From positions 690,001-722,000 of the forward strand of contig CP064992.1 of assembly GCA_016699935.1 (NCBI GenBank): a DNA stretch of 32,000 nt, given 5' to 3'. Positions 1,953 to 20,818 of this stretch are shown here, piece after piece. The translations under genes and the position numbers were made by a program. The number at the start of each line of letters is the position of its first letter. The stretch's first letter is position 1. Under the pieces are notes generated by a model. That model was given only the letters and a program-made list of their open reading frames with translations, ran no database searches and was not told the origin of the DNA. Origin of the DNA: Candidatus Saccharimonadota bacterium (GTDB lineage: Bacteria > Patescibacteriota > Saccharimonadia > Saccharimonadales > UBA4665).

Positions 1953-1993
1953 GAACACCGCCACAGCCGTAGCCCTGAACATAGGCACCAACA

Positions 1994-2437: not shown

Positions 2438-2438
2438 C

Positions 2439-2717: not shown

Positions 2718-2732
2718 CACCTCAGACATCGA

Positions 2733-3395: not shown

Positions 3396-3503
3396 GTAAC
3401 CTTACTCTTGACTCAGCAGCTGTACTGCAGCTGGGCGCTGCCAACGCCACAAGTATACTTATCGGTAAAACTGCTACTACGGCCACAGTCCAGGGCAGCT
3501 TGA
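2757..3503 (+). CDS. Gene A fragment (true frame only ~2905-3365): linker plus second copy of the Thr/Gly fibre repeat
   Basis: From SPLFDTATGVALNIGTTNATQINLNKNVSIAANQNITFVAGTGNFDQ... it parallels 181-250 and 2040-2398. The first ~50 and last ~45 codons are out-of-frame read-through. Confidence 0.55.
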   Translation: MPVSSLPVMPQLLPQQLLTSSEPNSLHPNSWLQDRWYWYSRYLSRYDCCPSPLFDTATGVALNIGTTNATQINLNKNVSIAANQNITFVAGTGNFDQSASTGTFQTGTGAVSLNGDTTVASGKNLTVTSGTTALTGTTNINTSGAATTSIGTGTGNNSIGNTTGTLGLTGSTVTVAGNTSINTTGTGTTTIGSVTAGAVSITSMLLVASRLIQVTLLLTQQLYCSWALPTPQVYLSVKLLLRPQSRAA

Positions 3504-4186
3504 CAGTCGGTGCCTCAGCCGGCACGGGTACATTTACTAACAACGGCGCCACGATTAATACCGAAAAGACTTATGGTGACTTTGCGGCAAGTGGCGCCAT
3601 GGATACAGCTGCTAACTCAGTAGATAAATATACTTACTTCAGCATTGGCCAGACGACTACCGGACGAACCATCACACTTCCAACACCAACAACCAGCCCA
3701 ACCTCTTTGTTTGGCCGTATAATTCACGTTAGCAACATCGGTAGCACAAGCTTTACTATCAGTGGATCACTCATCATGCCTGGCTATACCGCTACGTTTG
3801 TCTGGAGCAATACCGATGGTGTGGCAACTGGTGGTGAGTCATGGCAATATGCTGGAGACGGTGGTGGTTCGGGTAGCTACATCCAGAACCAAAACGCTCT
3901 GCAACAAGCTAGCAGCAATTTCTGGCTGAGTGGCACTGGCCGGGCCGATACTTCCATACTGACGCCAACGATAGACACCGCCACAGGCGTAGCCTTGAAC
4001 ATCGGCACCAGCGGCAGCCCGACAACAACACAGATCAACATAAACCAAAGCACTGTCCTGGCCTCTGGCAAAACCATCCTTGTGCTTCATAGGCGATACT
4101 CGTACCAACATCAATGCCATTGGTTCACCCACAGAAGGCATGATGACTTACGACACAACAAACAAGCAGCTCCTAACCTACGCTAA
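3500..4186 (+). CDS. Gene A fragment: spacer domain and linker module
   Basis: The frame is open upstream to ~3364 (SNAASSITTNTGNLTLDSAAVLQLGAANATSILIGK...). It contains YIQNQNALQQASSNFWLSGTG...LTPTIDTATGVALNIGTSGSPTTTQININQ, a linker module that recurs at least 5 times in genes A and C. Confidence 0.7.
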   Translation: MTVGASAGTGTFTNNGATINTEKTYGDFAASGAMDTAANSVDKYTYFSIGQTTTGRTITLPTPTTSPTSLFGRIIHVSNIGSTSFTISGSLIMPGYTATFVWSNTDGVATGGESWQYAGDGGGSGSYIQNQNALQQASSNFWLSGTGRADTSILTPTIDTATGVALNIGTSGSPTTTQININQSTVLASGKTILVLHRRYSYQHQCHWFTHRRHDDLRHNKQAAPNLR

Positions 4187-5351
4187 TGGCAAATGGCAAG
4201 CAGATAGATCCGACGCCGTACTTGTAGCTGCCAGCAACTCCAGTGAAGCCGACAAAGCTGCAGCAGATTATGTAGCAACCGGTTCGGGTGACCAGACAAC
4301 TATCCAGAGTGCCCTCGATAGTGCCGACCCGTCTGCTGGCACTCGAAAAAGCGGCAAGGTCTTGCTTTTTGCCGGTACCTACACGGTGACAGACACTATC
4401 AACATACCCGACAACACCACATTGACTGGTGCTGGCCGGGGCAGCCTTATCCAATTTGGTAATATCGCTGGCCAAAACAAAAACATGATTCAAAATAAGA
4501 ATACAACGGCAAGTACTGGTCTTGTACTTCGCGATATCCGACTCGACGGTAACAAGGCAACAAACACAACTGGCACGCAGCATGGCGTATATCTGCTTTC
4601 ATCAACGTTCCCAGGCTCAGGGGCAGGTGCTCGTATCGGCTCAGTAGTCCAAAACGTATGGGTGAGCAACTTTAGATCTAACGGCATATATGTACATAAC
4701 CAGTCCGGCAATAGCAACATTAGTAATAACATGGTGCAAGACAACGCAGCTATCGGTATCGCCGTGCAATCCGCACACGCAAATAACGTTACAAACAACT
4801 ATGTTGTTGGTAATGCTACTGACGGCATATGGGTATCTGGCTCCAGCTACAACGTAATAAGTATGAATAACGTCAATTCCAATACAAACCGAGGAATAGT
4901 CGTCGACGGTAGCGCGAACAGCAACACAATCAACAGCAATGCTCTAAAAGACAACGGCACCGGAACTGAAGCTAGTATTCTAGTGTTAAATGCTGCAACG
5001 ACACTTATTTCCAATAACGCGATTACAGATAATACCGGCGCATCTGCTTACGCAATAGACATTGATCCAACTGCTACAAACGTGTATATAGCCAACAACT
5101 CTTTAGTGGGTACGGCGGTTACGAACGGTGTGAGAGATCAGGGTACAAATACGACAATAGGTGGCCAGCTGAATAATGTTATGGGTACAGGGTCGTATGT
5201 TATCCAAAACGCTGGAGGTGTATCAATAAGTAGTTCTAACAAAGCTGTTTCCAGCGCAGTAAGCATTCAAAGCGGTAATAGCACGGCTGGTACCGCTGCT
5301 ACTGTAAGCATAGATACTGGTACAAGTACTGGAGTGGTACAAGCAATATAA
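4080..5351 (+). CDS. Gene A fragment: junction motif plus second, divergent beta-helix cassette A2
   Basis: IGDTRTNINAIGSPTEGMMTYDTTNKQLLTYANGKWQADRS (nt 4092-4202, close to 292-402) is followed by a different set of rungs: LVLRDIRLDGN, VQNVWVSNFRSNG, NSNISNNMVQDN, NNVTNNYVVGN, YNVISMNNVNSN, NSNTINSNALKDN, TTLISNNAITDN. Confidence 0.85.
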   Translation: MCFIGDTRTNINAIGSPTEGMMTYDTTNKQLLTYANGKWQADRSDAVLVAASNSSEADKAAADYVATGSGDQTTIQSALDSADPSAGTRKSGKVLLFAGTYTVTDTINIPDNTTLTGAGRGSLIQFGNIAGQNKNMIQNKNTTASTGLVLRDIRLDGNKATNTTGTQHGVYLLSSTFPGSGAGARIGSVVQNVWVSNFRSNGIYVHNQSGNSNISNNMVQDNAAIGIAVQSAHANNVTNNYVVGNATDGIWVSGSSYNVISMNNVNSNTNRGIVVDGSANSNTINSNALKDNGTGTEASILVLNAATTLISNNAITDNTGASAYAIDIDPTATNVYIANNSLVGTAVTNGVRDQGTNTTIGGQLNNVMGTGSYVIQNAGGVSISSSNKAVSSAVSIQSGNSTAGTAATVSIDTGTSTGVVQAI

Positions 5352-5452
5352 ATATAGGCACAACAAACGCTGGGGCGGTAACAATCGGAAAAGCAGCTGG
5401 CACAACAGCAATAAACCTAAAATCTAGCACAATAAACGTTGGTATCGCTACG

Positions 5453-6901
5453 GTGGCAACGACTATTCAGGGTGTAACGCAGACTACAGCTGCAACAGCC
5501 GGTGCGGCACTTACTATTCAGGGTTCTACTGGCAATACAACTGGGGCAGGTGGCATTGTAACAATTGTGGGTGGAACGGGCGGTGCAACCAACGCCAACG
5601 GCGGTAACTTAGTGCTGAGTGGTGGCGCCAAAACTGGCGCAGGTACTCAGGGCTTGGTAACGATCTCCACGAGTGCATTTACATCTTCTACTACCCAAAG
5701 TTTCGGAAGCTCTGCAAGCCTTACGGCAGGCTTAGTCGATCAGTACAGTAGCATACCTGTAACCGCAACAGCGTCTGGAGTTACCGTAACTATACCTGCG
5801 CCAGCTGCTGTAAACCAAGTAGTTGGTAGATTGCTATATGTCGCAAACGTGGGCGTAACAAACGACTTCAACATTTTATTAACTGGCACAAGCGTAACTG
5901 TGGCGCTCAAACCGAATAGTACGGCAACACTTATATGGAATGGCAACGGCTGGACGGCAGCTGGCGCATCGAGTGCGACTGACCTTCAGGCTGCTTATAA
6001 CAACACACAGACGAGTGCTGGTGGGGCGGAAATTGTTCTTAGATCTACCCTTGATACGCCAACGGGCACGGGAGGATTAACCATTCGAAATAATGACACG
6101 CTACCAATTTCTGGCGGGTTGCTCGAAATACAAAGTTCTATTGGCACAAACCTCTTTAGCGTCAACGGCTATGGTAGTGAGTTAGCTGCCAATGGTGGCG
6201 CAGAAACAAAGGGTGTCAGCGACATCACCTTCCCAGCAAGTACTTGGAGTAGCCAGAACACTGGTGCTGTTAGCCGTACGATAACTTCTGGGGAATTCCA
6301 AACGGGTATTGCTGGAGTAAAGATTGGCACCACAGGCTCCAACCAGGGTGCACGCAACCAGTTGACAGCCAACCCAGTCGCGAGCACCACCTACACGGTG
6401 TCATTCACGGCGGCGTCTAGCACAGCTGGCACAGGCACCACACCTATAGAAGTCATCTACTCACCCGATAACGGTACGACCCTTACCAACCTATGCCAAG
6501 GATACGGCAATGGTTTTACAAACTCTCGTACGATTTCCAACTACACAACAGTCAACTGGACGAAGGTGACATGTACCGTTACTACGACCGGTGCGGCCGT
6601 AACGACACCGCTACTCATCATCCGTCAAACAGATGCTACTACCCGGACTATTTACGTCGATAACCTCAGTATGATCCGTAACGATGCAACAACACGGCCA
6701 TCCAGTGTCCAAATCGGCGGCGGCAACACTGGTGGCCAGGTAACACTCTTTACCTTTGACCGATCCAGCGCGGCCCCGCTTGTGTCTGGTAGTGATGATC
6801 GTTATCTCGGCTCTATGTATTACGACACGACACTTGGCAACATCAATGTTACGAAGCCGATGGTTGGGGAGCTTGTGGTAGTGCGCCAGATAATATCGTG
6901 A
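5453..6901 (+). CDS. Gene A fragment: Gly/Thr spacer, CBM4/9 (CenC)-like carbohydrate-binding-type module, junction motif
   Basis: ELAANGGAETKG...STWSSQNTGAVSRTITSGEFQTG...TTYTVSFTAAS...VNWTKVTCTVTT...RTIYVDNLSM (~6145-6675) follows the pattern of CBM_4_9 modules. It ends ...GSMYYDTTLG at a slip. Confidence 0.85.
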   Translation: MATTIQGVTQTTAATAGAALTIQGSTGNTTGAGGIVTIVGGTGGATNANGGNLVLSGGAKTGAGTQGLVTISTSAFTSSTTQSFGSSASLTAGLVDQYSSIPVTATASGVTVTIPAPAAVNQVVGRLLYVANVGVTNDFNILLTGTSVTVALKPNSTATLIWNGNGWTAAGASSATDLQAAYNNTQTSAGGAEIVLRSTLDTPTGTGGLTIRNNDTLPISGGLLEIQSSIGTNLFSVNGYGSELAANGGAETKGVSDITFPASTWSSQNTGAVSRTITSGEFQTGIAGVKIGTTGSNQGARNQLTANPVASTTYTVSFTAASSTAGTGTTPIEVIYSPDNGTTLTNLCQGYGNGFTNSRTISNYTTVNWTKVTCTVTTTGAAVTTPLLIIRQTDATTRTIYVDNLSMIRNDATTRPSSVQIGGGNTGGQVTLFTFDRSSAAPLVSGSDDRYLGSMYYDTTLGNINVTKPMVGELVVVRQIIS

Positions 6902-7437
6902 CTTTGACGCCAGAATATTCAAACGCCGTACTAAGTGCGCCAGGAACTTTGGGTGGTAGCTTTACTGCTACTGGCGTGGGTACACTGACGGCCGACTTCT
7001 GCTCCAACCAGGGTAGTGTTCTTCAGGTCAACACCAGCTTCTGTGCATCTGGCATTGCCCGCAACTACTACCGCTGGACTTCACCGCAGGCCAGCCCTCA
7101 GACATACAGTATTTATGTGTCTTACAAGTTGCCCAGTACGTTCAAGGGCTTTTATGATGACAATACCATCAAGCTAACTGGCCTGCGCGATCATGCGACC
7201 AATTCGACAGCAGCACTAAGTGTCTTCAGGAGTACTGGTAGTGCAGTGACACAATGTGGATCGACCACCACAGTCACAACAAGTACCAGCAACTGGACGA
7301 CGACTAGTTTAACAGGTAACGAAACTTCGTGTAGTTTTGCCGCCAGTGACGTTGTGCTCTTCAAGATTGATGTTACGGCTCAAAGCAATGCCAACGTTTA
7401 TATAGAAAACCTTGAGTTTAGGTATACCAATAAGTAA
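6898..7437 (+). CDS. Gene A fragment: C-terminal ~180-aa domain
   Basis: It continues the junction motif (HQCYEADGWGACGSAPDNIV|TLTPEYS...). The sequence alternates in a beta-strand-like way and ends ...VYIENLEFRYTNK, followed by TAA. Confidence 0.8.
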   Translation: MTLTPEYSNAVLSAPGTLGGSFTATGVGTLTADFCSNQGSVLQVNTSFCASGIARNYYRWTSPQASPQTYSIYVSYKLPSTFKGFYDDNTIKLTGLRDHATNSTAALSVFRSTGSAVTQCGSTTTVTTSTSNWTTTSLTGNETSCSFAASDVVLFKIDVTAQSNANVYIENLEFRYTNK

Positions 7438-7729: not shown

Positions 7730-7852
7730 ATGAAAAAGGAAAGAAAAAGGCAAGACGATAGAGTGCTGAAGCGACTGCCGCAAAATGAGCGGCGGAAGCA
7801 GGTGCGCTTGCGTCGCCAGATACAGAGTGATCCATTGTTCTCGCTGGCATAG
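7730..7852 (+). CDS. Possible 40-aa basic small ORF (MKKERKRQDDRVLKRLPQNERRKQVRLRRQIQSDPLFSLA)
   Basis: ATG is preceded by aaggaag. Its stop lies 13 nt before heptad tract a, the same layout seen after the gene A and brnA stops. There is no homology I recognise. Confidence 0.2.
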   Translation: MKKERKRQDDRVLKRLPQNERRKQVRLRRQIQSDPLFSLA

Positions 7853-7864
7853 CCAGGGGAAACA

Positions 7865-7991
7865 GAGATATGAGATTAGAGACATGAGTCAAGAGTCATG
7901 AGACATGAGACATGAGTCATGAGTGAATCCCAAAAAAACAAACACAAAAACTCGCTAAAAATCCCAGGTGAAAATCCTGGGATTTTGCTAT
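7865..7991. repeat. Intergenic module R1, copy a: 9 heptads (7865-7927), A/C-rich tract, then hairpin
   Basis: gagatat gagatta gagacat gagtcaa gagtcat gagacat gagacat gagtcat gagtgaa, then atcccaaaaaaacaaacacaaaaactcgct and the hairpin. Positions 7890-7991 align with 8898-8990, apart from one heptad and differences in A-run length. Confidence 0.8.
7958..7986. terminator. Hairpin with flanking A/T runs (bidirectional rho-independent terminator-like) in R1a
   Basis: aaaatcccagg-tgaaaat-cctgggatttt: an 11-bp perfect stem with a 7-nt loop, A-run 5' and T-run 3'. Confidence 0.55.
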
Positions 7992-8343: not shown

Positions 8344-8624
8344 TTGGTGAAATACCTTGATTGGAGCGCTGAGAAAGACGCGTTACTGAAAGCAGAACGA
8401 GGTATCGGATTTTCCGATGTGCTAACGGCACTCGAGTCTGGTGGTCTGCTCGTAGACTTACATCACCCGAGTCAAACTACCCTCACCAACGAGTTTTTAT
8501 CGTCGCAAGTTCTCGGTTATGCCTATGTGGTGCCGTATGTAGAAGACGATGAAAGATATTTCTAAAAACGATTATTCCGAGCCGACTTGCCACCAGAAAA
8601 TATTTACAAGGAGACAAATTATGA
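8344..8624 (+). CDS. brnT: BrnT-family (DUF497-type) ribonuclease toxin, reconstructed across ~3 slips
   Basis: The ORF-track piece 8344-8565 gives VKYLDWSAEKDALLKAERGIGFSDVLTALESGGLLVDLHHPS...LGYAYVVPYVEDDERYF. Adjacent frames supply NYPHQRVFIVAS and FLKTIIPSRLATRKYLQGDKL. Its TGA overlaps the next ATG (ATGA at 8621-8624). Confidence 0.75.
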
Positions 8625-8878
8625 ACGACTACGATTTACCAAAGATGAGCAACAGTTAATGGATGATATAGAATAGAGATATTTTAACACCGGTAGCTAA
8701 TTTTGCCGACCGGAAAAAACAGTTCGAAACGTACGCACGACATACGCTTAATAAAACACGTAATATAAACATTCGACTTAGTGAACGCGACGTACATCGG
8801 TTGAAGGCTCGTGCCGCCGAGGAGGGCCTACCGTATCAGACCTACGCGGCATCACTTTTGCACAAAGCAACTCGCTGA
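8621..8878 (+). CDS. brnA: BrnA-type CopG/RHH antitoxin, reconstructed (no ORF-track entry because of two A-run slips)
   Basis: MNDYDL(T)KDEQQLMDDIE...NRDILTPVANFADRKKQFETYARHTLNKTRNINIRLSERDVHRLKARAAEEGLPYQTYAASLLHKATR. The N- and C-terminal parts share one frame. The middle reads correctly only if ttacc (~8636) and gaatag (~8671) each lack A residues. Confidence 0.75.
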
Positions 8879-8893
8879 TTGCAGATGAAAGAT

Positions 8894-8990
8894 GATGCAA
8901 GAGTCATGAGACATGAGTCATGAGTGAATCCCAAAAAAAAACACAAAAAACTCGCTAAAATCCCAGGTGAAAATCCTGGGATTTTGCTAT
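8894..8990. repeat. Intergenic module R1, copy b: 5 heptads, A/C-rich tract, then hairpin
   Basis: gatgcaa gagtcat gagacat gagtcat gagtgaa, then atcccaaaaaaaaacacaaaaaactcgct and the hairpin. It starts 16 nt after the brnA stop. Confidence 0.8.
8957..8985. terminator. Hairpin of R1b (same sequence as 7958-7986)
   Basis: aaaatcccagg-tgaaaat-cctgggatttt, placed downstream of brnTA. Confidence 0.5.
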
Positions 8991-9183
8991 GTATTTCAGG
9001 GGTAGAGTGGTACACTAAAAGCAATAGCGGTAAGAGGGCAGGGTGCGGTAAACGCATAAAAACAGTGAAAGACATAAAATTCCGAACAGTTGAACGCGGT
9101 TTACCCAGTACAAGGGAGGGTAGATCGTGCCCAAAAAATGCCGTAACCGTAAAACCGAGTCTCACTACATATAGGCAGTTAAA

Positions 9184-11679
9184 ATGGGTGAAAAATATCT
9201 GGCGAAAACTATGGCGGCAAGCAAACAGACTAGAAAAAAAATGTCTTGCTACATTTGCAAAACCTATAGCACGCAAGCTATACTACTTGCGGCCCAAGCG
9301 CAGGAAGCATCCTATGCTTGCCAGGATGGGATGGGGAGCGATGGCTGGGCTTATGCTGGTTACTGCAAATATCGATGTTGTCAACTTGCATCAAAAAATG
9401 TCGCTTACGGTCTAACGCCACAAGCTGAACAACTGCTTAGTTCACCAAAAACAACATACGGTGAAAGACTGAAGCTAGATACTAAAAAGGGTATCTACAA
9501 TTACAATCAAGGATTTCAAGTTGGTATAGGCGTGGATGGTCAGTTGAGTGGTCCAAGGTTTACCGCATCATTTGCGGTTGACCCAGCCAAGGGTACAACT
9601 GTTACCGATGCCGGTAAAGATGTCAGCGTGACGTTCACACCCAATTTCAAACTTGAACAGCCGAGGCAAAAAGACAACCGTTTGGTATACCCAGTTACGG
9701 GCACCACTGCCCAAAAAGTATATACGTTACGTGCTGCTAGCGTGAAGGAAGACATAATTTTCAACACCTATCAGGGAGACACGGCGGAGTTTGCTTACAA
9801 GCTCGATATGGCAGCTGGTACAGAAGCGAGGATGGAATCGAACGGTGCTTTGTCGATATATGGTGTAGATTCAACAATGCTTGGTAAGGTTTCGACGGGT
9901 TCAGAAAAGGATCAAGCACTACTAGAGAGCGCTCGCAAAAATGGTGAAAAGAATCTGCTACTTTTCACTTTCCCAGCGCCGTTTATCCGTGAAAGCGGTA
10001 AAAAGACCAGTCATGCAAAAGCTTGGTATAGTCTAAATGACAACGTCTTGACAATCCACGCTTCCAATTTAAAAGCCGCAAGCTATCCACTCAGTATTGA
10101 CCCGACAGTATATGTTGAAACGGCGCGCAAACTGATGCGGGGAAACAACGAATCAAATATCGACTTTGATGTCGACAATGAGCTGATCCAAAAAAGCCAA
10201 ACGACTGGCGCGCGTATCGATGCCTGGAACAATAACGGTGATCTTGACTACGCACTATGGGATCAAGGGACTGCCGTAGCAGGAGGATACATATATTCTG
10301 TCGGTGGACAGGAAGTATACAAAAAAGTATTCAACACTCAGGGGGCAGCCACCTTCAAGGTGCCGACAGGTGTCAGCTCGATTACGACCAAAATGTGGGG
10401 GGCGGGTGCTGGTGGCGGTGCTGGCGGGGCATCGGTAGCTGGCGGAACTGGTGGCGGTGCTGGCTATTTGTCGGCAACAGTAACAGTCAGTGCTGGAGAA
10501 ACCCTCAATTTGTACGTGGGTGGAGCTGGAAATGGCGGAGCGTACAGTGCAGCGGGTGTTGACGCAGGTGGCGGTGGCTCAGGTGGTGGTTTTTCTAGCT
10601 TGTATCGTAGTGCGACGCCATTAGTGATAGCAGCAGCCGGTGGTGCCGGTGGCGGCGGTCGAAACGCAACAGCCGGTGGTGCTGGTGGCGGTGGCGGTAC
10701 AGACACAGGCAACGGAGTTGCGGGTACAACTGTTGGAAATGGTGGCGGAGGCGGTGGTGCTACCACTGGTGGATCTCCAGCAGCAGGAACTGGTGGATCA
10801 GGTGGAAACAACGGTGGCTCAGCTGGTGCATCGCTGGCTGGTGGCGCAGGAGCGGATGGTCGTACAGGCAGTGTCGACGGTAGTGGCGTGGCGGGTGGTC
10901 TTACTTCGGGAGGGGCAGGTGGCTTGGCAAATCAAAATATTACTCGTCCTGGTGGTGGTGGTGGCGGTGGCGGTTACTATGGTGGTGGCGGTGGTGGCTC
11001 GACCACGAGTGCCAATGGCAATGCTGGTGGTGGCGGTGGCGGTGGCGGTGGGTATGCAAATACGGGTGCAGGCGTAACAGTTACCGCTCGAAACGTTGGT
11101 GCTGGCACAACGCCTGGCAACTCAGCCGACAGTGATCGAAATGGTGCTGGTACAGGAGGCACGGGTGGTACGGCTACAAATAGCGGAAGCGCTGGGTCAA
11201 ATGGAATAATCATCATAACCTATACGGTATCTGGTAATAGCACAGCCACAACAACGCGGGTTGCATGGGCACAATTCAACACCACTACAAACGTCATAGA
11301 AAGTCCAAATCCTGGTAACGGTGCTTGTACCGGTTGGTGCAATAATAGCGTCTACGATTTACCGCAAGCTCGAAACGGCTTCACGCTAGTAACCTATAAT
11401 GGCTTTTTATACGTCATGGGTGGTACGGACTCAAATACGGGAGGTACCTGCAGTGGTGCCCAAAAAGCCTGTACTACCGTTTATATTGCCAAACTTGGAG
11501 CAAATGGCGAGCCGCAGCTTTGGCATCCGACCGATACCAACAAAAATAACTGGGTATATTGGTATAGCGACACGGCGCTGGTGGTAGTACAGACGGCAGA
11601 AGCTATTTATGGTGCGGCCGCCTACAATAACCGCATGTATTTGCTAGGCGGAAAAACAAATGCAGCAGGGGAGGCGTGA
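9184..11679 (+). CDS. Gene B fragment 1: N-terminal domain, first blade, glycine-rich (polyglycine) domain, two blades
   Basis: ...ASYPLSIDPTVYVE ends the N-terminal domain. Then come GGYIYSVGGQ and FKVPTGVSSITTKMWGAGAGGGAGG...GGGGGGGGYYGGGGGG...GSNGIIIITY (10354-11225), followed by FLYVMGGT and MYLLGGK. The true N-terminus probably passes through the 8924-9415 frame (MLARMGWGAMAGLMLVTANI, 9314-9395) via slips in the A8 run (9234-9241) and A6 run (9393-9398). Confidence 0.85.
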   Translation: MGEKYLAKTMAASKQTRKKMSCYICKTYSTQAILLAAQAQEASYACQDGMGSDGWAYAGYCKYRCCQLASKNVAYGLTPQAEQLLSSPKTTYGERLKLDTKKGIYNYNQGFQVGIGVDGQLSGPRFTASFAVDPAKGTTVTDAGKDVSVTFTPNFKLEQPRQKDNRLVYPVTGTTAQKVYTLRAASVKEDIIFNTYQGDTAEFAYKLDMAAGTEARMESNGALSIYGVDSTMLGKVSTGSEKDQALLESARKNGEKNLLLFTFPAPFIRESGKKTSHAKAWYSLNDNVLTIHASNLKAASYPLSIDPTVYVETARKLMRGNNESNIDFDVDNELIQKSQTTGARIDAWNNNGDLDYALWDQGTAVAGGYIYSVGGQEVYKKVFNTQGAATFKVPTGVSSITTKMWGAGAGGGAGGASVAGGTGGGAGYLSATVTVSAGETLNLYVGGAGNGGAYSAAGVDAGGGGSGGGFSSLYRSATPLVIAAAGGAGGGGRNATAGGAGGGGGTDTGNGVAGTTVGNGGGGGGATTGGSPAAGTGGSGGNNGGSAGASLAGGAGADGRTGSVDGSGVAGGLTSGGAGGLANQNITRPGGGGGGGGYYGGGGGGSTTSANGNAGGGGGGGGGYANTGAGVTVTARNVGAGTTPGNSADSDRNGAGTGGTGGTATNSGSAGSNGIIIITYTVSGNSTATTTRVAWAQFNTTTNVIESPNPGNGACTGWCNNSVYDLPQARNGFTLVTYNGFLYVMGGTDSNTGGTCSGAQKACTTVYIAKLGANGEPQLWHPTDTNKNNWVYWYSDTALVVVQTAEAIYGAAAYNNRMYLLGGKTNAAGEA

Positions 11680-12122
11680 CCACTGTGGAGGTAGCGGACG
11701 TACGACCAAATGGCACTCTCGGTAGCTGGTCGACTTCTGGTATGCAAGTACTACCTTCTGTACGTCACGGTCACACGGTGCATATTTATAATGACACCAT
11801 GTATCTGATAGGGGGTAACAGCAACGGCACCCTGCAAAGCTCAGTTTATTACAGCAAACTAAATAGCGACGGCACAATGAACGGCTGGACTTTGACCAGT
11901 GGTTTTAGCACGTATGGGGCACGCACAACCCAAGGTGGCAGTTTTAGTACGGTGTGGGGAGCCTATATTTATTTAGCAGGCGGCTGTAGTACCGTAAATG
12001 GTAGCGGTTATTGCACGGTAGTGGAAAGCGATACGATATTAGCCAGCATTAACGCCGATGGCAGCTTGGCAGAGTGGAATAGCATAAACAACCTGACGGT
12101 AGTCGATCTGGATATAATTTGA
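11676..12122 (+). CDS. Gene B fragment 2: Kelch-type blades
   Basis: MYLIGGN and IYLAGGC, with W/G spacing typical of propeller blades. Confidence 0.75.
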   Translation: MTTVEVADVRPNGTLGSWSTSGMQVLPSVRHGHTVHIYNDTMYLIGGNSNGTLQSSVYYSKLNSDGTMNGWTLTSGFSTYGARTTQGGSFSTVWGAYIYLAGGCSTVNGSGYCTVVESDTILASINADGSLAEWNSINNLTVVDLDII

Positions 12123-12328
12123 TAGCCTGGCAGGGTGGACTGTATCGGCTGGGTGGTTGCATAAGCCAAAATGGCACTACAGGGGTGTGTGATAACACGA
12201 TATCGGCCTACGAATATGGTGTCGTGAACCAAGATGGCGATGCCAGCACGGTCAGCAACTCGAGCCGAGTGGAACAGCGCCGTGTAGTGGGGTACTCCGA
12301 TAAACTGCGACCTTCCTCCAGCAGGTGA
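12119..12328 (+). CDS. Gene B fragment 3: Kelch-type blade
   Basis: AWQGGLYRLGGCISQNGTTGVCDNTISAYEYGVVNQDGD. The frame is open upstream to ~12090 (PDGSRSGYNL). Confidence 0.6.
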   Translation: MIAWQGGLYRLGGCISQNGTTGVCDNTISAYEYGVVNQDGDASTVSNSSRVEQRRVVGYSDKLRPSSSR

Positions 12329-12361
12329 TGGCGCGGGGCAAGGCGGCCAAATGTCTCTAGC

Positions 12362-12568
12362 ATGGTTGTGGTCAATAACGGATTTATTTATAACATCGGT
12401 GGTTGCGTCGCTCCAGCCAGTGCATGCAACACAAACATGAGTGGCAATATTTCTTATGCCGAGCTAAATAGTGATGGTAAATGGCAAAACCTGCTACCTG
12501 TGGTGGCACATCATATGGTCTTTGGTGTGTTGATAGTACAAATAAGATTAATGGAGCTAACGGTTTAG
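12362..12568 (+). CDS. Gene B fragment 4: Kelch-type blade (correct frame only to ~12478)
   Basis: VVNNGFIYNIGGCVAPASACNTNMSGNISYAELNSDGK. The frame then slips into that of 12481-14517. Confidence 0.55.
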   Translation: MVVVNNGFIYNIGGCVAPASACNTNMSGNISYAELNSDGKWQNLLPVVAHHMVFGVLIVQIRLMELTV

Positions 12569-14517
12569 GTGCGGCTGGAGCGACAGTTTTCAATAATGTG
12601 ATTTACGTGGCTGGCGGTACAGATTCTACCAACTGGCAGTCTACGCTGTGGCGAGTTGGCTTAAATGCCAATGGATCTTTAGCAGGTGCCTGGTCGACCC
12701 AAGCATTCGGTACAGGAGCTGGTAATCTTGGTTTGACAGGTAATGATGCGGACGCACGGGGTTACTTCTATATGTTTACACGAGCAAACCCAAATGCAGC
12801 CAACTCAAACCCAGGAAACTTATACATCTTGGGAGGTTGTGCTGGTTCGAGTGGGATTGGTTGCAATACTTACTATACCGAAACTATAAAGTGCAATATT
12901 GATACAAGTGGCGTAGTCAATACATGTGGTACTGGCAGCCAATTGCAAATAGATGCCGACAACATAACATCGGGAGATCAAGGCTTAGGACTCATGGCAG
13001 GCACAGTGTATGCCAATAGACTGTATTTGGTGGGTGGTTCTTGCACTAGCGTGGGGGCGGCAGGCAACCCATGTGGATCGACCTATTCAGCAAACCGCAA
13101 GGACACTATATATGCCAAAATTGACAGCAGTAACAACATTGTGGCAGAAAGCGGCGGGGTCTGGCAGTTTGCATCGGCGCAAATGAATCCGGTTCGACGA
13201 CGGGCTATGTCATTTGGTTACAATGGGTATATATACTCCTTGGCAGGCTTTAGCGGCAGCAGCTCGCTTCAGGACTTACTATTCTCGAAGATAGATGTTA
13301 GCACCGGTGATATGGAGCCCTGGTCGAGCTCTGGAGTGGTGGTGACGCCGCGCTGGGATCTTCGTGCTATTGTGAGTAACGGGTATGTCTATGCCATAGG
13401 GGGCTGTGGTCTTGGCAACGGTTCGCAGCCAGAAGCACCGAGCAACTGCTTAACCATGCAGCCAGAAATTCAGACATTTCAGCTATACAATAATGATAGC
13501 GGAACACCCATGGCCTATAGTGCCACTGGTACATGTGGCGCTGGGCCGTGCTCTGGTGCGGGTGGAGTTGATCGAGTGGGGGGAAGTTCTACTATCTTGA
13601 ATGGCTACATCTACTATACGGGTGGCTGTACTAACACTGGTTGTACCACCATGAGCAACCTTACCTACTACGCCCCGATAGATAGTAATGGTGGTGTTGG
13701 TACCTGGGTGCAAGCTGCCAGTACACTACCGACAGCTCTAGCCTGGGGCAAATTACTGGCGGCCGGAGGTGCGCTTTACTATATAGGTGGGCAAACCGGT
13801 GCGGCGGCCACAACTGCCGTTTCGACAGTGTATTATACGTCTGGAATAGCTTCTGGCGTACCTACCTGGAATGCCAGCGCGGCGAGCGGTGGCGTGGGAG
13901 ATACCGCTGGACAAGTGGCGCAACCGCGCACTCAGTTTGGCGCTGCAGCATGGAATAATCGACTATATGTGGTGGGTGGTTACAGCTCTGGCGGTACCGT
14001 TCAATCTACGGTGTATGTTAGCCCGCAGCTGAGTTCGGGGGGAAATATCTCGGCTGATTCCTGGGCTTCATCGACGGCGTTTAGTGTGGCACGTGCTGGC
14101 TTAGCTGCTGTAGCCTATGCCAATAACCTGTACCTATTTGGCGGTGAGGAAACAGCTGGAAATTACCTGAACGACTCACAGTTTACCCGAATAAATAGCG
14201 ATGGTACGGTCGATGCTTGGACTTACAGCACAAGTTTACCAGGTAGGCTGCGGGACGCCGAAGGATATGCTGCCAATGGCTACCTCTATCTTTTGGGAGG
14301 TCGTTCGGCCAGCACAACATGTGTACCAAACACGCTGGTTACACCAATCAGTGCCAATACGACGATTGCTAGTGGTAATAATCCGACAGGAGTTGGTGAA
14401 TGGTACGAAACCAACAAAAAGTATACTGGCGATCGTTATGGAGCGGCTGTTGCTTATGCCAACGGGCGAGCCTACATAATGGGTGGTGCCTGTAATAGTG
14501 CTTTTGGCGGCCGGTGA
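12481..14517 (+). CDS. Gene B fragment 5: 11 consecutive Kelch-type beta-propeller blades
   Basis: Blade signatures: IYVAGGT, LYILGGC, LYLVGGS, IYSLAGF, VYAIGGC, IYYTGGC, LYYIGGQ, LYVVGGY, LYLFGGE, LYLLGGR, AYIMGGA. Each is followed ~25-30 residues later by a conserved W. Confidence 0.85.
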   Translation: MAKPATCGGTSYGLWCVDSTNKINGANGLGAAGATVFNNVIYVAGGTDSTNWQSTLWRVGLNANGSLAGAWSTQAFGTGAGNLGLTGNDADARGYFYMFTRANPNAANSNPGNLYILGGCAGSSGIGCNTYYTETIKCNIDTSGVVNTCGTGSQLQIDADNITSGDQGLGLMAGTVYANRLYLVGGSCTSVGAAGNPCGSTYSANRKDTIYAKIDSSNNIVAESGGVWQFASAQMNPVRRRAMSFGYNGYIYSLAGFSGSSSLQDLLFSKIDVSTGDMEPWSSSGVVVTPRWDLRAIVSNGYVYAIGGCGLGNGSQPEAPSNCLTMQPEIQTFQLYNNDSGTPMAYSATGTCGAGPCSGAGGVDRVGGSSTILNGYIYYTGGCTNTGCTTMSNLTYYAPIDSNGGVGTWVQAASTLPTALAWGKLLAAGGALYYIGGQTGAAATTAVSTVYYTSGIASGVPTWNASAASGGVGDTAGQVAQPRTQFGAAAWNNRLYVVGGYSSGGTVQSTVYVSPQLSSGGNISADSWASSTAFSVARAGLAAVAYANNLYLFGGEETAGNYLNDSQFTRINSDGTVDAWTYSTSLPGRLRDAEGYAANGYLYLLGGRSASTTCVPNTLVTPISANTTIASGNNPTGVGEWYETNKKYTGDRYGAAVAYANGRAYIMGGACNSAFGGR

Positions 14518-15047
14518 CCGCACGTATCAGACGACGCTGAAATCACAGCCCCAAGTCGCTAAATATTCACGCATGATCGACACTGACACAGATGTTTTCC
14601 CGACCAAATGGCTGCTAAACGGGCTTGATAATTCGACTGGTGCCGAATGGTATCTACGATATCCGTAGCATGAACGATATAGATGGTGATACGGCTGACT
14701 GTGTTGTAGATATGACTACATGGGGACAAAGAGACAAATTACGGAAAGGTGACACTAGGTTCACCAGCAACCTACACGCCGAAAGATGGTGGTGGCACAA
14801 CTACAAACTGTGCTCGCTATTTCTATTTTTCAGTCAATATTGATAGCTCACAAGCTTTTGGCTACCCAGAAAGTGTTGACCTCGCGGACCAACCATTGCT
14901 GACCTAAGCTTGTTCTTCACAGCTGACCCTAGTAAACGGCTCTTGCATGGCAAAACTTTCACCGGCGGTGAGCAGCAACCTTTGGATACACCTTTTAAGG
15001 TTCATAATGTTAGTTATGTAATCTCGCAAGGAAAAATATGGAGTTAG
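14483..15047 (+). CDS. Gene B C-terminal region, spread over four frames
   Basis: GDRTYQTTLKSQPQVAKYSRMIDTDTDVFPTKWLLNGLDNSTGAEWYLRY | SMNDIDGDTADCVVDMTTWGQ | ETNYGKVTLGSPATYTPKDGGGTTTNCARYFYFSVNIDSSQAFGYPESV | RGPTIADLSLFFTADPSKRLLHGKTFTGGEQQPLDTPF... Confidence 0.55.
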
Positions 15048-15218: not shown

Positions 15219-15807
15219 ATGAAATTATTCGTTTTGGTGCGCGGGGCAGCCATCACGTCAGTCGCGGTAGCGCGAATATTGCAGAAGGTGCTCGTGGGAC
15301 CAGTCGAAAAATTAAGTCGAAAATCGATGAGAGGAAGAGAAGCGTAGAAATGAGAGGGAGGCACAGCGGGTCATACGATACATGAAGCAGCAGGGATTAC
15401 TGGCGGGGTCGTATGAACATGGGCTGCAATTGACCCGAAAAGCGCAGGGTAGGCTGGAACGCATAGAAATTGATTCTATTACTGTCACACCGACAACAGT
15501 GTGGGACGGTCTATGGAGAATAATTATTTATGATATCCCCGAAGAAAAAGGGGGCTCGCCACGCTTTTTGGTTACGGTTGCACCAGATCGGTTGTTTTCA
15601 GCTCCAGAAAAGCACCTGGATTATACCGTATGCGTGTCGCAATGAGATAGCGACACTCGCAGCACACCTGGTGTTGACGAATATGTTTCTTACTTTGAAG
15701 CAGTAAACCTAGATAATGAAAAGGTGCTGTTACGGCGTTTTAAAAACAAATATCCAGATACGAACTTTTCACAACATTCCCGCCATCATCATGCCAAGGC
15801 TTCCTAG
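15219..15807 (+). CDS. PaaX-like / Cas2-fold domain putative transcriptional regulator, reconstructed across ~3 slips
   Basis: MKLFVLVRGAAITSVAVARILQKVLVGPVEKLSRKSM | EKRRNEREAQRVIRYMKQQGLLAGSYEHGLQLTRKAQGRLERIEIDSITVTPTTVWDGLWRIIIYDIPEEK | ARHAFWLRLHQIGCFQLQKSTWIIPYACRNEIATLAAHL | GVDEYVSYFEAVNLDNEKVLLRRFKNKY. The W-D-G-x-W-R-h-h-h-F/Y-D-I-P signature is typical of PaaX-type proteins. The ORF-track piece is 15382-15645. Confidence 0.65.
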
Positions 15808-16388: not shown

Positions 16389-17182
16389 ATGCTAGAGTTA
16401 TGGACATCAGGAATTTTCGTAAAATCAGAATTAGACGAAGAAGCGTGGGAAGCGTGGCTGGGTGAAGAAACCTCAAAAAAGCTAGTAAGCCAAAACAGCC
16501 AGCCAAAATTCATACACCATCCCAGGTGAAATCAATAGATGGTTTGGCCATCCCGGGTGAAACAAGTTGACCAAGTGACGCATAAAAAGCCAAGAAAAAT
16601 CAGGCGCTGCAACCATATCTATTCAAATACATATGCCAAAGTTTCAGTTGCCGTCATGGCGACCACGCAAAGTACATCTGCCGTGGCAGCAGATGAAACC
16701 ATGGCTGATTGGCCTAGGGCTCATGGCGTTGGTAATTGTTGGAGGTAAACTGCTGCTAGGCAAAGCAACCATGAACAAACCAAACACGGTCAAAACACCG
16801 GTGGTGGTACAAACCGAACTGGGCTACAAGCCGGTGCTACCAGAGGTGCGGGCTGCCACAGAAACGCAGCCAACCAAACCAAATATGACGAAAAACGTAA
16901 GCTTTACAGCTTTAATGACACGTATAAGGGGCAAAATTACTGTAGATCGGCAGTCGCTGCCCGAAAAGTTGACTAGAAAAGTGAAATAGTAAAACTAGCG
17001 GATAAGCTTGCAAATGACTGAGGTATTTACCACAACTATTGGTGAAGTGAGAATGTCTACCAGTAAAGAAACAGGTGCACAGCGACTGATGGTGACGAAG
17101 TAGTAAAATGCTAATGTTTATCCAGAGCACCACCAAACTTTCCATTACAGAGTGGGTAGATTACATACAATCCCTGGAATAA
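16389..17182 (+). CDS. Membrane-anchored hypothetical protein, reconstructed across several slips (start uncertain: 16299 or 16389)
   Basis: MLELWTSGIFVKSELDEEAWEAWLGEETSKKLVSQNSQPKFIHHPR | SIDGLAIPG... | ...MPKFQLPSWRPRKVHLPWQQMKPWLIGLGLMALVIVGGKLLL (TM segment; ORF-track 16633-16989) ...ITVDRQSLPEKL | EIVKLADKLAND | EVFTTTIGEVRMSTSKETGAQRLMV | SSKMLMFIQSTTKLSITEWVDYIQSLE, then stop. The architecture resembles the 22866-23366 product. Confidence 0.45.
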
Positions 17183-17605: not shown

Positions 17606-20600
17606 ATGAAAAGGCCAACAAACATACTCGTACTGTTTGTGCATACCCTCTGGCACCCGGCCAAGAGGGGTTTTGTCGTCCCTAGCTACCGAACCAACCA
17701 CCCCTTCACTCATCTCAGCTGGTCCCATGGTCACATGAGCTCAAAGTCTGTCAGTCAAGTGCTGTTAGTCTTGCTCATCCTACCCTTGTTTTTCCTCACG
17801 CGCGGGTACACAGGCGCACCACGCGCCTATGCCGCCACATCCGACAACCTGAACTTCCAAGCTCGTTTGCAAACTGCCTCTGGTGCGATTGTCGCTGATG
17901 GCTACTACAACATCGAGTTCAAGCTCTACAGTGCTGCTTCTGGTGGTAGCTCTCTGTGGGATGAAACCTACAGCTACAGCTCTGGCTCTGGTCAGTGTAG
18001 CGGCCCCTTGGGCACCAATGACTGCCGTGTCCGAGTAGCCAATGGCTACGTCACCGTCAACCTAGGCACAGTCACCAGCTTCCCAGGCACCATGCCCTGG
18101 GATCAGCAGCTCTACCTGACCATGAACGTAGGTGGTACCACCAGCTCTGGAGCCATTACCTACGACGGAGAGATGAACCCCAGGCTGAAGATGACGGCTG
18201 TCCCCTATGCCTTCAACGCCAAGACAGCCAGCAGTTTAGCCACGAGTAATGGAGCCCTGCAGTCTACTCTGAGCATTGTCGCGCCTACAGGCGGCAACCA
18301 AACCTTCCAAATACCGGATCAAGGTGCCGGAGGAACTTATACGCTACTTACAGGTAGTGCCGCAAACGGCATGTATATTCAGCTGCAAAGCTCAACTCCG
18401 GGGACACAACAAACCGGTAACTTCAACATCAGTGGCACAGGTATAGCTGCCACTTTGCAGGCGCAAACTATCGACACTTCATCTGCCAGTGTGTTGAGTT
18501 TGGGCGTTAGCAATGCCACAAATATACAAGTAGGCAGCAATACAACTGATGCAACAGCAAAACTCTTTATCCTAGATAGTTATAATGGTGGGACTGATCC
18601 AACGGGATACAACGGGGCGATGTACTACAATACCAGCTTGAGTAAATTTCGCTGCTATGTTGGTGGTGCATGGCTCGATTGCGAGGGCTCAGCTGGGTCA
18701 GGCGTAACAACTATCGGAGCCATAGATTCCCAGACGAAAAGTGCCAACGGTGCAGTTATAAGTGGCACTACTATATATATGCAGACAGCAGATGCAACAA
18801 ATCCTGGTCTCGTGAGTACGGGATCTCAAACATTTGCTGGAGACAAAACGTATTCTGGCAATATCATAGTTTCGGGCAATCAAAGCATAACTGTCACTGG
18901 TGGCGCCACCGGCACCCGCCCAGTCAGCCCCACAGAAGGCATGGTCTACTACGACACGACTACGAAACAACTCTTGACGTACGCCAATGGCAAATGGCAA
19001 GCTGACCGAAGCGAAGCCATCTTGGTTGCCGCCAGTGACAGCTCAGATGCCGACAAAGCCTCAGCTGACTATGTAGCTGATGGTAACACTGGTGCAGCCC
19101 TTGATGGTGACCAAGTGCAGATCAACGACGCTCTTACGGCTGCCAGTGCTTCAGGTACCCGTAAGACCGGTAAGGTTTACCTCTTCGCTGGTACGTACAC
19201 TGCTGATGCCACTATCCTCATCCCGAACGGTGTTACCCTCGCTGGTAGTGGTCAAAGCTCAGTCATAAAACTGGCAGACATTGATGCGACCGACAACCTC
19301 ATCGAAAACAGTGACACGGCAACTGGTGCCAACATCACTATTCGTGACCTCCGCCTAGAAGGTCAACGCAACCTCAACACGGCTGGCACGCAGCACGGTA
19401 TCTACCTGCTCGGCATGGGCAAAGAAACAACCGGCAACAATGCCGTCAACGGCGCCTTCATTAGTAACGTCACCGTCTACTACTTCCGCACCGATGGTAT
19501 CCGCCTCGATACCTCCTCTCACAACACGATTACCAGCAGCATCTTCCGAGACAATGAGCAGTATGGTCTCTACATCCTGAATCTAAACTCCAAGTTCAAC
19601 AGCATCACCGCCAACCAGTCAGAAGGCAACAACGTCGACGGCTTCCGACTCGAATCTGGCTACAGCAACACCTTCAGTGGTAACGTTGCCTACGACAATA
19701 CTTCGGCCGGTATGGCTATAGCCGGCAGCGCCAATAGCAACAACATCGTCAATAACAACTTCCGCGGCAACAATGCCTATGGTATCTATGTCGGTGCTTC
19801 GACCCTGAACAACATCAGCTCAAACAACATCCGGGGTGGTAGCACCTACGGTATCTATGTTTCTGGCTCAGACGGCAACACGGTAAACGACAACAACATC
19901 TATGACACTGGTAGCGCAACAACCAACAACGCTATCTACTTGACTGATTCTGATCGTAACAGCATTAATGGCAACGTGATCGATGACACCTCAGCATCCA
20001 CTAACAACTACGCCATCAATATCTTCAATAGCACCAGCAACAGTAACTACATATCTGGAAACATCCTCGGCGATAACGGTGCCGGTGTCACAGCTACCAT
20101 TAACGATGCTGCCACAGACACTACCTACGGTGGCCAGGCTACCGCCCTCAACAGCACCGACATCCTCTTCAAACAGTCGGCTTCAACTGCCGCTTTCCAG
20201 ATCCAAAATGCTAACGGCACCAGTATATTGAACATTGACTCAACAAACGGAGAACTAGAAGTCGGTAGTTACAATGGCGGCACTAACCCAGTAGCCGGTA
20301 AGATCGTTATAGCTACTACTGCCAATGCCAACACAGTTACTCTGCAGTCGGCTACTCAGACTGGTAACTACACCCTCAGCATCCCAGCCCTAACAGCTAA
20401 TGCCAATGTATGTACCGACAACGCTATCTGCTCTGGTTACCTTGGTACTAGCACTGGTGTCCAACTGCAAGCTGCTACTCCTGGCACAGCCCAGACAGGC
20501 CACTTCAACATCACTGGTACAGGCATAGCCGGTACTAGCCTCCTCACCCCACTGCTAGACACTGCAACTGGTGTACCTCTCAACATCGGCACCAGCGGCG

Positions 20601-20818
20601 GCCCGACAACTACTCAGATCAACCTCAACCAAAATGTGGTGGTCGCAAATGACAAATCAATCATCATTGGTTCTACATCAGGCATAGGAAATGCAACAGC
20701 CTTGCAGGTGAACTATGGTTCAACCCAAATCTTTACAGTAGATTCATCAGCCGGCAACAACCGTGTAACAGTGGGATCACCAGGTGACTGTATCAATCAG
20801 GGGGTAAATTCTGCATAG
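17606..20818 (+). CDS. Gene C fragment 1: signal peptide, N-terminal fibre domain, two junction motifs, beta-helix cassette, linker modules
   Basis: The likely true start is Met at 17735 (MSSKSVSQVLLVLLILPLFFLTRGYTGAPRAYA). Then NLNFQARLQTASGAIVADGYYNIEFKLYSAASGGSSLWDE..., GAMYYNTSLSKFRCYVGGAWLDC (18614-18688), TEGMVYYDTTTKQLLTYANGKWQADRS, and a beta-helix at 19045-20135. This 3.2 kb ORF is uninterrupted. Confidence 0.9.
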   Translation: MKRPTNILVLFVHTLWHPAKRGFVVPSYRTNHPFTHLSWSHGHMSSKSVSQVLLVLLILPLFFLTRGYTGAPRAYAATSDNLNFQARLQTASGAIVADGYYNIEFKLYSAASGGSSLWDETYSYSSGSGQCSGPLGTNDCRVRVANGYVTVNLGTVTSFPGTMPWDQQLYLTMNVGGTTSSGAITYDGEMNPRLKMTAVPYAFNAKTASSLATSNGALQSTLSIVAPTGGNQTFQIPDQGAGGTYTLLTGSAANGMYIQLQSSTPGTQQTGNFNISGTGIAATLQAQTIDTSSASVLSLGVSNATNIQVGSNTTDATAKLFILDSYNGGTDPTGYNGAMYYNTSLSKFRCYVGGAWLDCEGSAGSGVTTIGAIDSQTKSANGAVISGTTIYMQTADATNPGLVSTGSQTFAGDKTYSGNIIVSGNQSITVTGGATGTRPVSPTEGMVYYDTTTKQLLTYANGKWQADRSEAILVAASDSSDADKASADYVADGNTGAALDGDQVQINDALTAASASGTRKTGKVYLFAGTYTADATILIPNGVTLAGSGQSSVIKLADIDATDNLIENSDTATGANITIRDLRLEGQRNLNTAGTQHGIYLLGMGKETTGNNAVNGAFISNVTVYYFRTDGIRLDTSSHNTITSSIFRDNEQYGLYILNLNSKFNSITANQSEGNNVDGFRLESGYSNTFSGNVAYDNTSAGMAIAGSANSNNIVNNNFRGNNAYGIYVGASTLNNISSNNIRGGSTYGIYVSGSDGNTVNDNNIYDTGSATTNNAIYLTDSDRNSINGNVIDDTSASTNNYAINIFNSTSNSNYISGNILGDNGAGVTATINDAATDTTYGGQATALNSTDILFKQSASTAAFQIQNANGTSILNIDSTNGELEVGSYNGGTNPVAGKIVIATTANANTVTLQSATQTGNYTLSIPALTANANVCTDNAICSGYLGTSTGVQLQAATPGTAQTGHFNITGTGIAGTSLLTPLLDTATGVPLNIGTSGGPTTTQINLNQNVVVANDKSIIIGSTSGIGNATALQVNYGSTQIFTVDSSAGNNRVTVGSPGDCINQGVNSA
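18988..20557. repeat. Copy 2 of ~1.56 kb near-identical beta-helix cassette (partner 389-1952)
   Basis: See 389-1952. This copy is frame-intact. Confidence 0.9.

Follow-up and report, generated by a model that had tools for sequence, protein, structure and literature searches.

The DNA analysed here, 32,000 nucleotides of contig CP064992.1 from a Candidatus Saccharimonadota bacterium (the window), carries at positions 9127-15047 a gene for a giant Kelch-repeat protein, the Kelch giant. Judged by alignment with its orthologues, this is a single genuine gene, about 1,960 codons long, interrupted by some 15 single-base insertions or deletions (indels) of sequencing type. Profile matches, repeat pattern and fold place the protein in the Kelch superfamily. 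Its 18 blades, which probably form three six-bladed propellers, follow a predicted membrane anchor and a beta-rich N-domain and precede a jelly-roll C-domain, and blade 1 is interrupted by a glycine-rich cassette at a site where other family members carry a cassette of this type, an unrelated one or none. The family is widespread in environmental Saccharimonadales. Features lie on the forward strand unless otherwise indicated.

Gene extent and reading frame

Between about 9100 and 15050 the window has no single long open reading frame (ORF); instead, overlapping pieces follow one another through all three frames (9184-11679, 11676-12122, 12083-12325, 12329-12565, 12481-14517, and several short ones up to 15047). 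In tblastn searches with homologues these pieces succeeded one another in the order of one protein. A frameshift-aware DNA alignment, guided by a 1909-residue orthologue joined from two adjacent ORFs of locus L001, was collinear over 9150-14996 and required about 15 single-base corrections, yielding 1940 codons with no internal stop. With a second guide, the intact 1916-residue protein of locus L007, identity was 62% over 1841 aligned residues. Frame changes were placed near 9389, 11011/11019, 11581/11610, 11665, 12099, 12260, 12289, 12354, 12479, 14503, 14663, 14730, and 14881. Among 70 related loci from species-representative genomes, 51 could be evaluated, and in 49 of these an uninterrupted ORF ran from the N-domain to the C-domain; intact orthologues had 1,550-2,600 codons. 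Because the orthologue alignment was collinear and stop-free after correction, and because a single ORF was found in almost all evaluable genomes, the pieces were taken as one gene. A first-pass annotation, made from the sequence alone, had already proposed one protein of about 1,950 amino acids split by indels, and this was upheld. It had placed the start at ATG 9184. A GTG at 9127-9129 is likelier, seven bases behind a probable ribosome-binding site (GGGAGG, 9114-9119), and orthologues start with a similar basic N-terminus. The exact start is given as probable because an indel in the A-run just downstream of this GTG shifts the frame. The stop codon is at 15045-15047.

The most likely source of the frame breaks is not gene decay but indel errors in the consensus of a long-read assembly. 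Other genes of the window are broken too: htrA (29881-31097) is split into two ORFs at 30339, the small membrane protein gene downstream of the Kelch giant (16633-17140) has at least three frame changes in 0.5 kb, and the upstream giant gene (262-7437) is in at least seven pieces, with up to about seven inferred frame changes in 4.1 kb, a count into which divergent guides can introduce spurious frame-change pairs. The window as a whole therefore bears dense single-base indels, as is typical of an unpolished long-read assembly. The alternative is a pseudogene in this genome, whose roughly 15 breaks within 5.9 kb would be true mutations and whose protein would no longer be made. In its favor, indel density is higher in the Kelch giant than in the adjacent ORF 17606-20818, which is unbroken across 3.2 kb, and just about half of the frame changes adjoin runs of at least four bases, so that a homopolymer test alone is not decisive. 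Against it, the 1940 corrected codons contain not one nonsense codon, all 18 blade motifs and the conserved C-terminal tail are intact, genes on both sides are frameshifted as well, and 49 of the 51 other genomes have an intact copy. Both remaining genomes are metagenome-assembled genomes (MAGs) from sample MFD05684, each with several frame changes; their contigs are named contig_N and they were taken to be long-read assemblies. We regard true gene decay as improbable.

Kelch blades, terminal domains and the blade-1 cassette

A regular expression found 18 blade motifs in the non-glycine part of the corrected protein, compared with a mean of 0.25 and a maximum of 3 in 2000 shuffles. The motifs start at 10288, 11404, 11632, 11796, 11964, 12137, 12383, 12598, 12817, 13018, 13228, 13384, 13606, 13771, 13960, 14125, 14281, and 14467, and are spaced 52-80 amino acids apart. 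All seven blade signatures quoted in the first-pass annotation, and the eleven more that it counted in 12481-14517, were recovered at their places, and its Kelch assignment was borne out by Pfam profiles scoring above their cut-offs on raw fragments. On fragment 12481-14514 these were Kelch_1 (62.6 bits, cut-off 20.1), Kelch_6 (41.6 bits, cut-off 25.3), and Kelch_KLHDC2_KLHL20_DRC7 (69.3 bits, cut-off 50). Earlier blades scored lower, with 35.3 bits for Kelch_1 on the corrected 701-1322 stretch.

Propeller 1 would consist of the first half of blade 1 (10261-10320, …AVAGGYIYSVGG) together with 11251-12261, which holds the second half of that blade (RVAWAQFN), a Cys loop (NPGNGACTGWC), and blades 2-6. 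In orthologues with no insert (P0014, P0010, P0187, and others) the blade-1 motif continues directly into VYWAKFN. Orthologue P0014, 53% identical to and collinear with the window protein, was modelled with AlphaFold2 (AF2) in place of the window's own sequence. Its residues 360-715, corresponding to blades 1-6, had predicted local distance difference test (pLDDT) values of 85-96. In Foldseek comparisons the model matched six-bladed Kelch structures (SAKe6 designs, KLHL12, Keap1, and LZTR1) with a target-normalised template modelling (TM) score of about 0.8 and E of about 1e-15. For this orthologue the model shows blades 1-6 closing into a predicted six-bladed propeller. A Cys-containing linker with three frame changes inside (12262-12353, EPSGTAPCS…INCDLPPAGDGAGQGGQM) would join propellers 1 and 2; its P0014 equivalent (716-757) was modelled with low confidence. 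By motif coordinates and Pfam, propeller 2 would comprise blades 7-12 (12354-13527), and propeller 3 the Cys motif GTCGAGPCSG followed by blades 13-18 (13528-14510), where the best Pfam Kelch matches were found. Similar Cys motifs follow blades 6 and 12, so that 6+6+6 is the natural reading, and propeller 3 would close with six blades by analogy. The earlier claim of three propellers therefore stands for the 18 blades and, in the orthologue model, for closure of the first six; the 6+6+6 division of the whole is probable.

Most blades contain GGC…C cysteine pairs. In blades 5-7, 9, 10, 12, 13, 17, and 18 (11964-14500) a Cys directly follows the GG and a second one lies 4-14 residues on, as in GGCSTVNGSGYC and GGCISQNGTTGVC. 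This pattern suggests one disulfide per blade, in a protein that would be extracellular in a monoderm bacterium.

The N-terminus begins with a Lys/Arg-rich tail (9127-9313) that orthologues also have and that is predicted to be cytoplasmic by the positive-inside rule. It is followed by a single hydrophobic helix, a putative signal-anchor (MLARMGWGAMAGLMLVTANI, 9314-9373), whose counterpart in the P0014 model is helical too. The arrangement of basic tail and one hydrophobic helix is common to all orthologues, and by the same rule the rest of the protein is predicted to lie outside the cell. The beta-rich N-domain (9400-10110, about 240-260 amino acids) ends in YPLSIDPTV (10084-10110) and leads into a highly conserved linker (ETARKLMRGNNESNIDFDVDNELIQKSQTTGARIDAW, 10117-10227) that is 72-81% identical to the window over 48 orthologues, among the highest values in the protein. 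In the P0014 model the N-domain equivalent had pLDDT above 90. It had no match in Pfam, NCBIfam, PHROG, or PDB sequences, a profile built from 25 N-domain sequences gave one chance match to PDB sequences (E = 0.73), and the Foldseek matches of the P0014 model were dominated by its Kelch part. An N-terminal anchor or signal and distinct terminal domains had been described in the first-pass annotation and are present. Its "~370-aa" beta-rich domain does end in YPLSIDPTV, but the size was wrong, being a 260-residue domain plus the conserved linker.

A link to the DNRLRE domains of wall-associated proteins had also been suggested, from KDNRLVYP at 9670-9693 within the N-domain. The N-terminal 400 residues had no NCBIfam match even at E≤1 and none in Pfam. 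NCBIfam (release 20) includes the models that NCBI uses to name DNRLRE-type N-terminal domains, and the scans thus gave the link no support. The window sequence KDNRLVYP also lacks the R-E of the D-N-R-L-R-E signature. Among 25 family members just the N and the Y-P of this motif are conserved, with N94 and Y98 nearly invariant.

The C-domain (14516-14996, about 160 amino acids) carries the conserved motif IDTDTDVFP and the tail DPSKRLLHGKTFTGGEQQPLDTPF, and its predicted fold is a jelly-roll beta-sandwich. At 60-82% conservation to the window it is the most conserved part of the protein, including the tail pattern DPSKRLxHGKTFTGGxQQPLDTP. Its 111 close relatives, most of them fragments at contig ends, are 54% identical or more. 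No Pfam match was found at E≤1. Modelled alone from orthologue P0070 with AF2, the domain folded as a beta-sandwich (pLDDT 77, predicted TM-score 0.71). Its fold matches were weak, to F5/8-type-C or CBM32-like domains and to viral jelly rolls at a TM-score of about 0.4; the best Foldseek match had E = 2.2e-3, and none in PDB reached E≤1e-3. These matches, mainly to glycan-binding jelly rolls, hint weakly at such a fold. With no profile match and no confident fold match, the domain was not assigned to CBM32 or F5/8 type C. The ending …GGEQQPLDTPF quoted in the first-pass annotation was found at 14996. The last 25 or so residues (14940-14996, DPSKRLLHGKTFTGGEQQPLDTPF) form the most conserved stretch of the protein, yet they were modelled with pLDDT of about 45-65, which fits a flexible tail with a short recognition motif; this motif was found in no other protein family. 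Anchoring by sortase was considered and rejected, the C-terminus (…GGEQQPLDTPFKVHNVSYVISQGKIWS*) having neither an LPXTG motif nor a hydrophobic stretch.

Within the first fragment, the first-pass annotation missed a non-Kelch cassette of about 300 amino acids and about 36% glycine at 10321-11250. It ends in NGIIIITYTV and interrupts blade 1 between YIYSVGG and RVAWAQFN, in the loop after the YIYSVGG strand, probably between strands 2 and 3. The window copy itself scored 18.9 bits with Pfam Gly_rich_2 (PF21722; E = 0.0016), short of the 24.3-bit cut-off. All nine aligned orthologous cassettes matched PF21722 at E≤0.01 (best 1.1e-8), and the match is precomputed for P0001, P0002, P0003, P0011, P0012, and P0015. 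The window cassette may be grouped with Gly_rich_2 through these orthologues; on the window copy taken by itself the assignment is weak and inconclusive. The N-terminal part of the cassette matched phrog_863, of the tail category, with E = 8.8e-5 for the window and 1.3e-10 for P0001. No PDB sequence matched it, with either a single sequence or a profile. A tblastn search against phage genomes found none, with low-complexity masking probably to blame.

The state of the blade-1 loop was scored in 49 proteins, the window's and those of 48 intact orthologues (loci L007-L075). One Gly-rich cassette was present in 21 and two in one, one unrelated cassette of about 230 amino acids in 11 and two unrelated cassettes in two, and the remaining 14 had no cassette. 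The unrelated cassette has the sequence pattern FxMNMPxxRPxGDLYVA… and matched phage family phrog_3329 (3.7e-8), with no Pfam or PDB match. All four nearest relatives of the window protein, 60-65% identical to it outside the cassette, carry the unrelated cassette, and the module has therefore been exchanged between near relatives.

Two other kinds of insertion were seen. A second hot spot lies near 14510, between blade 18 and the C-domain, where 18 of the 48 orthologues have 66-322 extra residues (loci with such inserts include L009, L010, L020, L022, L025, L032, L034, L044, L048, and L057); the window protein has no extra residues there. In L022, L071, and L027, blades 13-15 also hold single large inserts.

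Family distribution and gene neighborhood

A HMMER search with the N-domain over 1.84 billion representative sequences (clusters at 50% identity) returned 541 representative clusters at E≤0.001. The 150 matches listed were mostly proteins of 1,400-2,600 amino acids with the domain near the N-terminus; the long ones among them had about 9-23 Kelch blade motifs, and just over half had a BLAST match to the C-domain. Nearly all of the 70 loci came from Saccharibacteria or Saccharimonadales MAGs, and by these counts of clusters and species-level genomes the family is widespread in environmental Saccharimonadales. Two short variants were noted. In P0012 (914 amino acids; L006 10001-12745), encoded at a locus that is normal in other respects, the N-domain and a cassette-bearing blade 1 are joined to blades 17-18 and the C-domain, and in P0188 the N-domain is joined directly to the last 20 residues; they are either true deletions or collapsed assemblies. 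A literature search found no paper linking Kelch with Saccharibacteria or Patescibacteria, and none describing the Kelch giant family. The three-propeller membrane-anchored architecture, the two unnamed terminal domains, and the domain-in-blade cassette site appear to be undescribed; the building blocks themselves are familiar.

Gene order was surveyed in the same 70 loci. It is conserved as an upstream giant, the Kelch giant, a small membrane protein, and then a beta-helix fibre gene and/or parAB. The conserved part of the upstream giant beta-helix gene is its C-terminal 650 or so amino acids (5453-7437 in the window, no Pfam match), and the homologue of this part ends at most 1.8 kb upstream of the N-domain in 56 of the 70 loci. 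Downstream, the most constant partner is the gene of the small single-pass membrane protein, which the first-pass annotation had missed and which tblastn identified in the window (32% identity with its L004 homologue). Of the 52 loci with a C-domain, 41 have a homologue of it after the Kelch giant. Next downstream come a beta-helix or Peptidase_S74 fibre gene in 20 loci and parA-parB directly in 14. Across loci the companions are giant NosD/beta-helix, CBM_4_9, and Peptidase_S74 proteins and the small membrane protein. In L049 the genes are tightly packed, with a 66-bp gap, a 35-nt overlap between the Kelch giant and the small membrane protein gene, and a 68-bp gap. In the window, beta-helix (NosD/Beta_helix) giants lie on both sides, and these are the "fibre" proteins of the first-pass annotation; parA and parB are at 25105 and 25852. 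The synteny with flanking giant genes anticipated there held across about 60 Saccharibacteria genomes. The Kelch giant had also been suggested as a third component of one surface system; the linkage is indeed stable, and joint action, for which synteny is the evidence, is plausible. The window contained no paralogue of the N-domain or C-domain elsewhere, and its Rfam and tRNA scans were empty.

Several smaller features of the intergenic regions were recorded. A terminator-like hairpin with an 11-12-bp stem (AAAATCCCAGG…CCTGGGATTTT) occurs twice with its flanks, at 7958-7986 and 8956-8986, and the two copies bracket about 1 kb that is absent from relatives L008 and L009. The bracketed segment contains a 73-residue ORF (8344-8565) and a CopG/BrnA-like antitoxin ORF (8672-8875; Pfam CopG_antitoxin E = 2.4e-5, below cut-off), and it looks like a toxin-antitoxin module, possibly inserted by duplication of the hairpin. 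A very basic ORF of 40 codons (7730-7852, MKKERKRQDDRVLKRLPQNERRKQVRLRRQIQSDPLFSLA) with no Pfam match has 48-95% amino acid identity in ten other loci, at least 75% in seven of them. Its usual position is in the stretch separating the upstream giant from the Kelch giant, but in L014 and L067 it follows the small membrane protein gene. Different passengers occupy the gap that separates the Kelch giant from the small membrane protein gene: a frameshifted PaaX/Cas2-like gene in the window (15382-15706), a PaaX/Cas2-like gene in the opposite orientation in L008 (9564-10196, reverse strand), and an IS200/Y1-transposase-like ORF in L007 (10822-11445, reverse strand). In most other loci there is no gene in this gap.

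Proposed function and comparison with known systems

Saccharibacteria and other Patescibacteria live attached to other bacteria, and to our knowledge few of the molecules by which they recognize their hosts have been identified beyond type IV pili and, in oral strains, a few adhesins. As a leading though still tentative reading, we propose that the Kelch giant is an envelope-spanning scaffold with exchangeable binding modules for host-surface recognition. The N-terminal helix would hold the protein in the cytoplasmic membrane, all the rest lying outside, and the three propellers, braced by disulfides, would cross the wall as a rigid stalk. Ligand binding would fall to the exchangeable cassette and the jelly-roll C-domain; the likeliest ligands would be glycans or proteins in the envelope of the host bacterium that carries the epibiont. 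The protein would work beside the neighboring giant beta-helix/CBM proteins and the small membrane partner. A more specific version, possible though on the unlikely side, is that it acts as a host-range determinant of environmental Saccharibacteria. The three-propeller stalk would then display cassettes that recombine between lineages, possibly with phages, the blade-1 loop and the junction before the C-domain would be the sites of exchange, and the cassette type would decide which host surfaces allow attachment of the epibiont. If true, the family would be a cellular counterpart of modular phage receptor-binding proteins.

A number of observations weigh against the proposed recognition scaffold. 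The published Pfam table of Southlakia epibionticum ML1, a cultivated epibiont, lists no Kelch protein (PMC10633639 supplement), and the family is therefore not universal in the phylum and not needed for epibiosis generally. The most conserved parts of the protein are the linker and the distal C-domain; the tips of adhesins are usually variable. Any cassette is absent from 14 of the 49 proteins, and the fixed place beside parAB would equally suit a housekeeping role in the envelope. The adhesion or host-recognition role is put forward from architecture and context. On the structural side, the confident model covers propeller 1 of an orthologue alone, the P0014 model has pLDDT of just 50-75 over blades 7-12, and the 6+6+6 arrangement of all 18 blades would follow by analogy. 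The window's own Gly_rich_2 match, as given above, falls below the Pfam cut-off.

Several of these points would be expected if the Kelch giant were instead a housekeeping component of the envelope, that is, a structural scaffold of the cell wall, the surface layer, or the division/segregation zone with no part in host choice. Its N-terminus would fix it in the membrane, and the conserved C-domain would dock it to a conserved component of the cell itself. The gene is generally present in one copy per genome at a fixed locus beside parAB, its linker and C-domain are the best conserved parts, any cassette is missing from the 14 proteins just mentioned, and in L049 it overlaps the gene of the small membrane protein. 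We nevertheless hold this explanation to be unlikely. Cassette swaps between close relatives and a second hot spot before the C-domain are more typical of proteins with changing partners, the neighbors resemble glycan-binding or depolymerase-like fibres, and the missing Kelch protein in S. epibionticum ML1 speaks against a housekeeping role as well. Very unlikely, in our judgement, is a membrane-anchored Kelch-propeller enzyme acting on envelope glycans, either a copper radical oxidase (GlxA, galactose oxidase) or a NanM-like sugar mutarotase. Streptomyces GlxA is a membrane-anchored Kelch-type propeller of Actinobacteria, the distant family member P0321 passes Pfam NANM (47.9 bits, cut-off 45), and the neighbors have carbohydrate-related domains. 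However, the modelled propeller fits six-bladed Kelch domains and not an oxidase fold of seven blades, the window protein matched no profile of a catalytic domain, and triple propellers in tandem with swappable cassettes are foreign to those enzymes.

As a recognition scaffold, the family would give a concrete and testable candidate for host recognition: widespread, large, probably surface-exposed, encoded in a conserved locus beside other giant glycan-related proteins, and carrying exchangeable modules with relatives among phage proteins. With it come two domain families absent from Pfam and an unusual domain nested in a Kelch blade. Were the Kelch giant a structural wall protein instead, it would still count among the few conserved components of the envelope that have been defined in this group.

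Among known systems, a close likeness is to six-bladed Kelch domains (KLHL12, Keap1, LZTR1, SAKe6, and bacterial NanM). The window blades share the hydrophobic-Y-h-h-G-G pattern followed by a conserved W, Kelch_1 and Kelch_6 score above their cut-offs, and the first propeller of the orthologue, as modelled, superposes on these domains at the TM-score given above. Unlike them, the window protein would put three propellers in one extracellular, membrane-anchored chain. Its blades are long (52-80 amino acids) with paired cysteines, a whole domain sits inside blade 1, and sequence identity to the solved domains is just 15-21%. GlxA has an N-terminal membrane anchor, and GlxA and galactose oxidase have an extracellular Kelch-type propeller and an accessory beta-sandwich domain, all features with likely parallels here. 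Their single seven-bladed propeller with a copper site was not what we found: the modelled propeller is six-bladed, the 18 blades divide 6+6+6 at Cys-rich linkers into three probable propellers, and no catalytic signature was detected.

The C-domain is similar in size and beta-sandwich topology to F5/8 type C (discoidin)/CBM32 domains, such as the C-terminal domains of Bacteroides chitobiases (3f2z, 2kd7, 3ggl), its best fold matches. It differs in that these matches are weak (E≥2e-3, TM-score about 0.4) with no profile match, and the tail KRLxHGKTFTGGxQQPLDTP has no counterpart there. For the cassette, the pattern VPxGVTS-ITVK-WGGGGGGG…GYFGGGGG resembles Gly_rich_2 (PF21722) and Gly_rich (PF12810), the latter covering the ALK/LTK glycine-rich domain; PF21722 is matched by all nine orthologous cassettes, and a phage PHROG of the tail category by the N-terminal part. 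In some phage gp38 adhesins the receptor-binding tip is built of polyglycine-II sandwiches. In contrast to these, the cassette is nested in a Kelch blade and not placed at a fibre tip, and the window copy scores below the Pfam cut-off. With modular phage receptor-binding proteins and adhesins the Kelch giant shares a conserved scaffold bearing unrelated alternative modules at a fixed site, modules that differ between close relatives, and phage relatives for both types of cassette. It differs from them in being encoded by a chromosomal gene beside parAB, in its predicted membrane-helix anchor, in not belonging to a virion, and in that the swapped module lies near the membrane-proximal propeller and not at the distal end.

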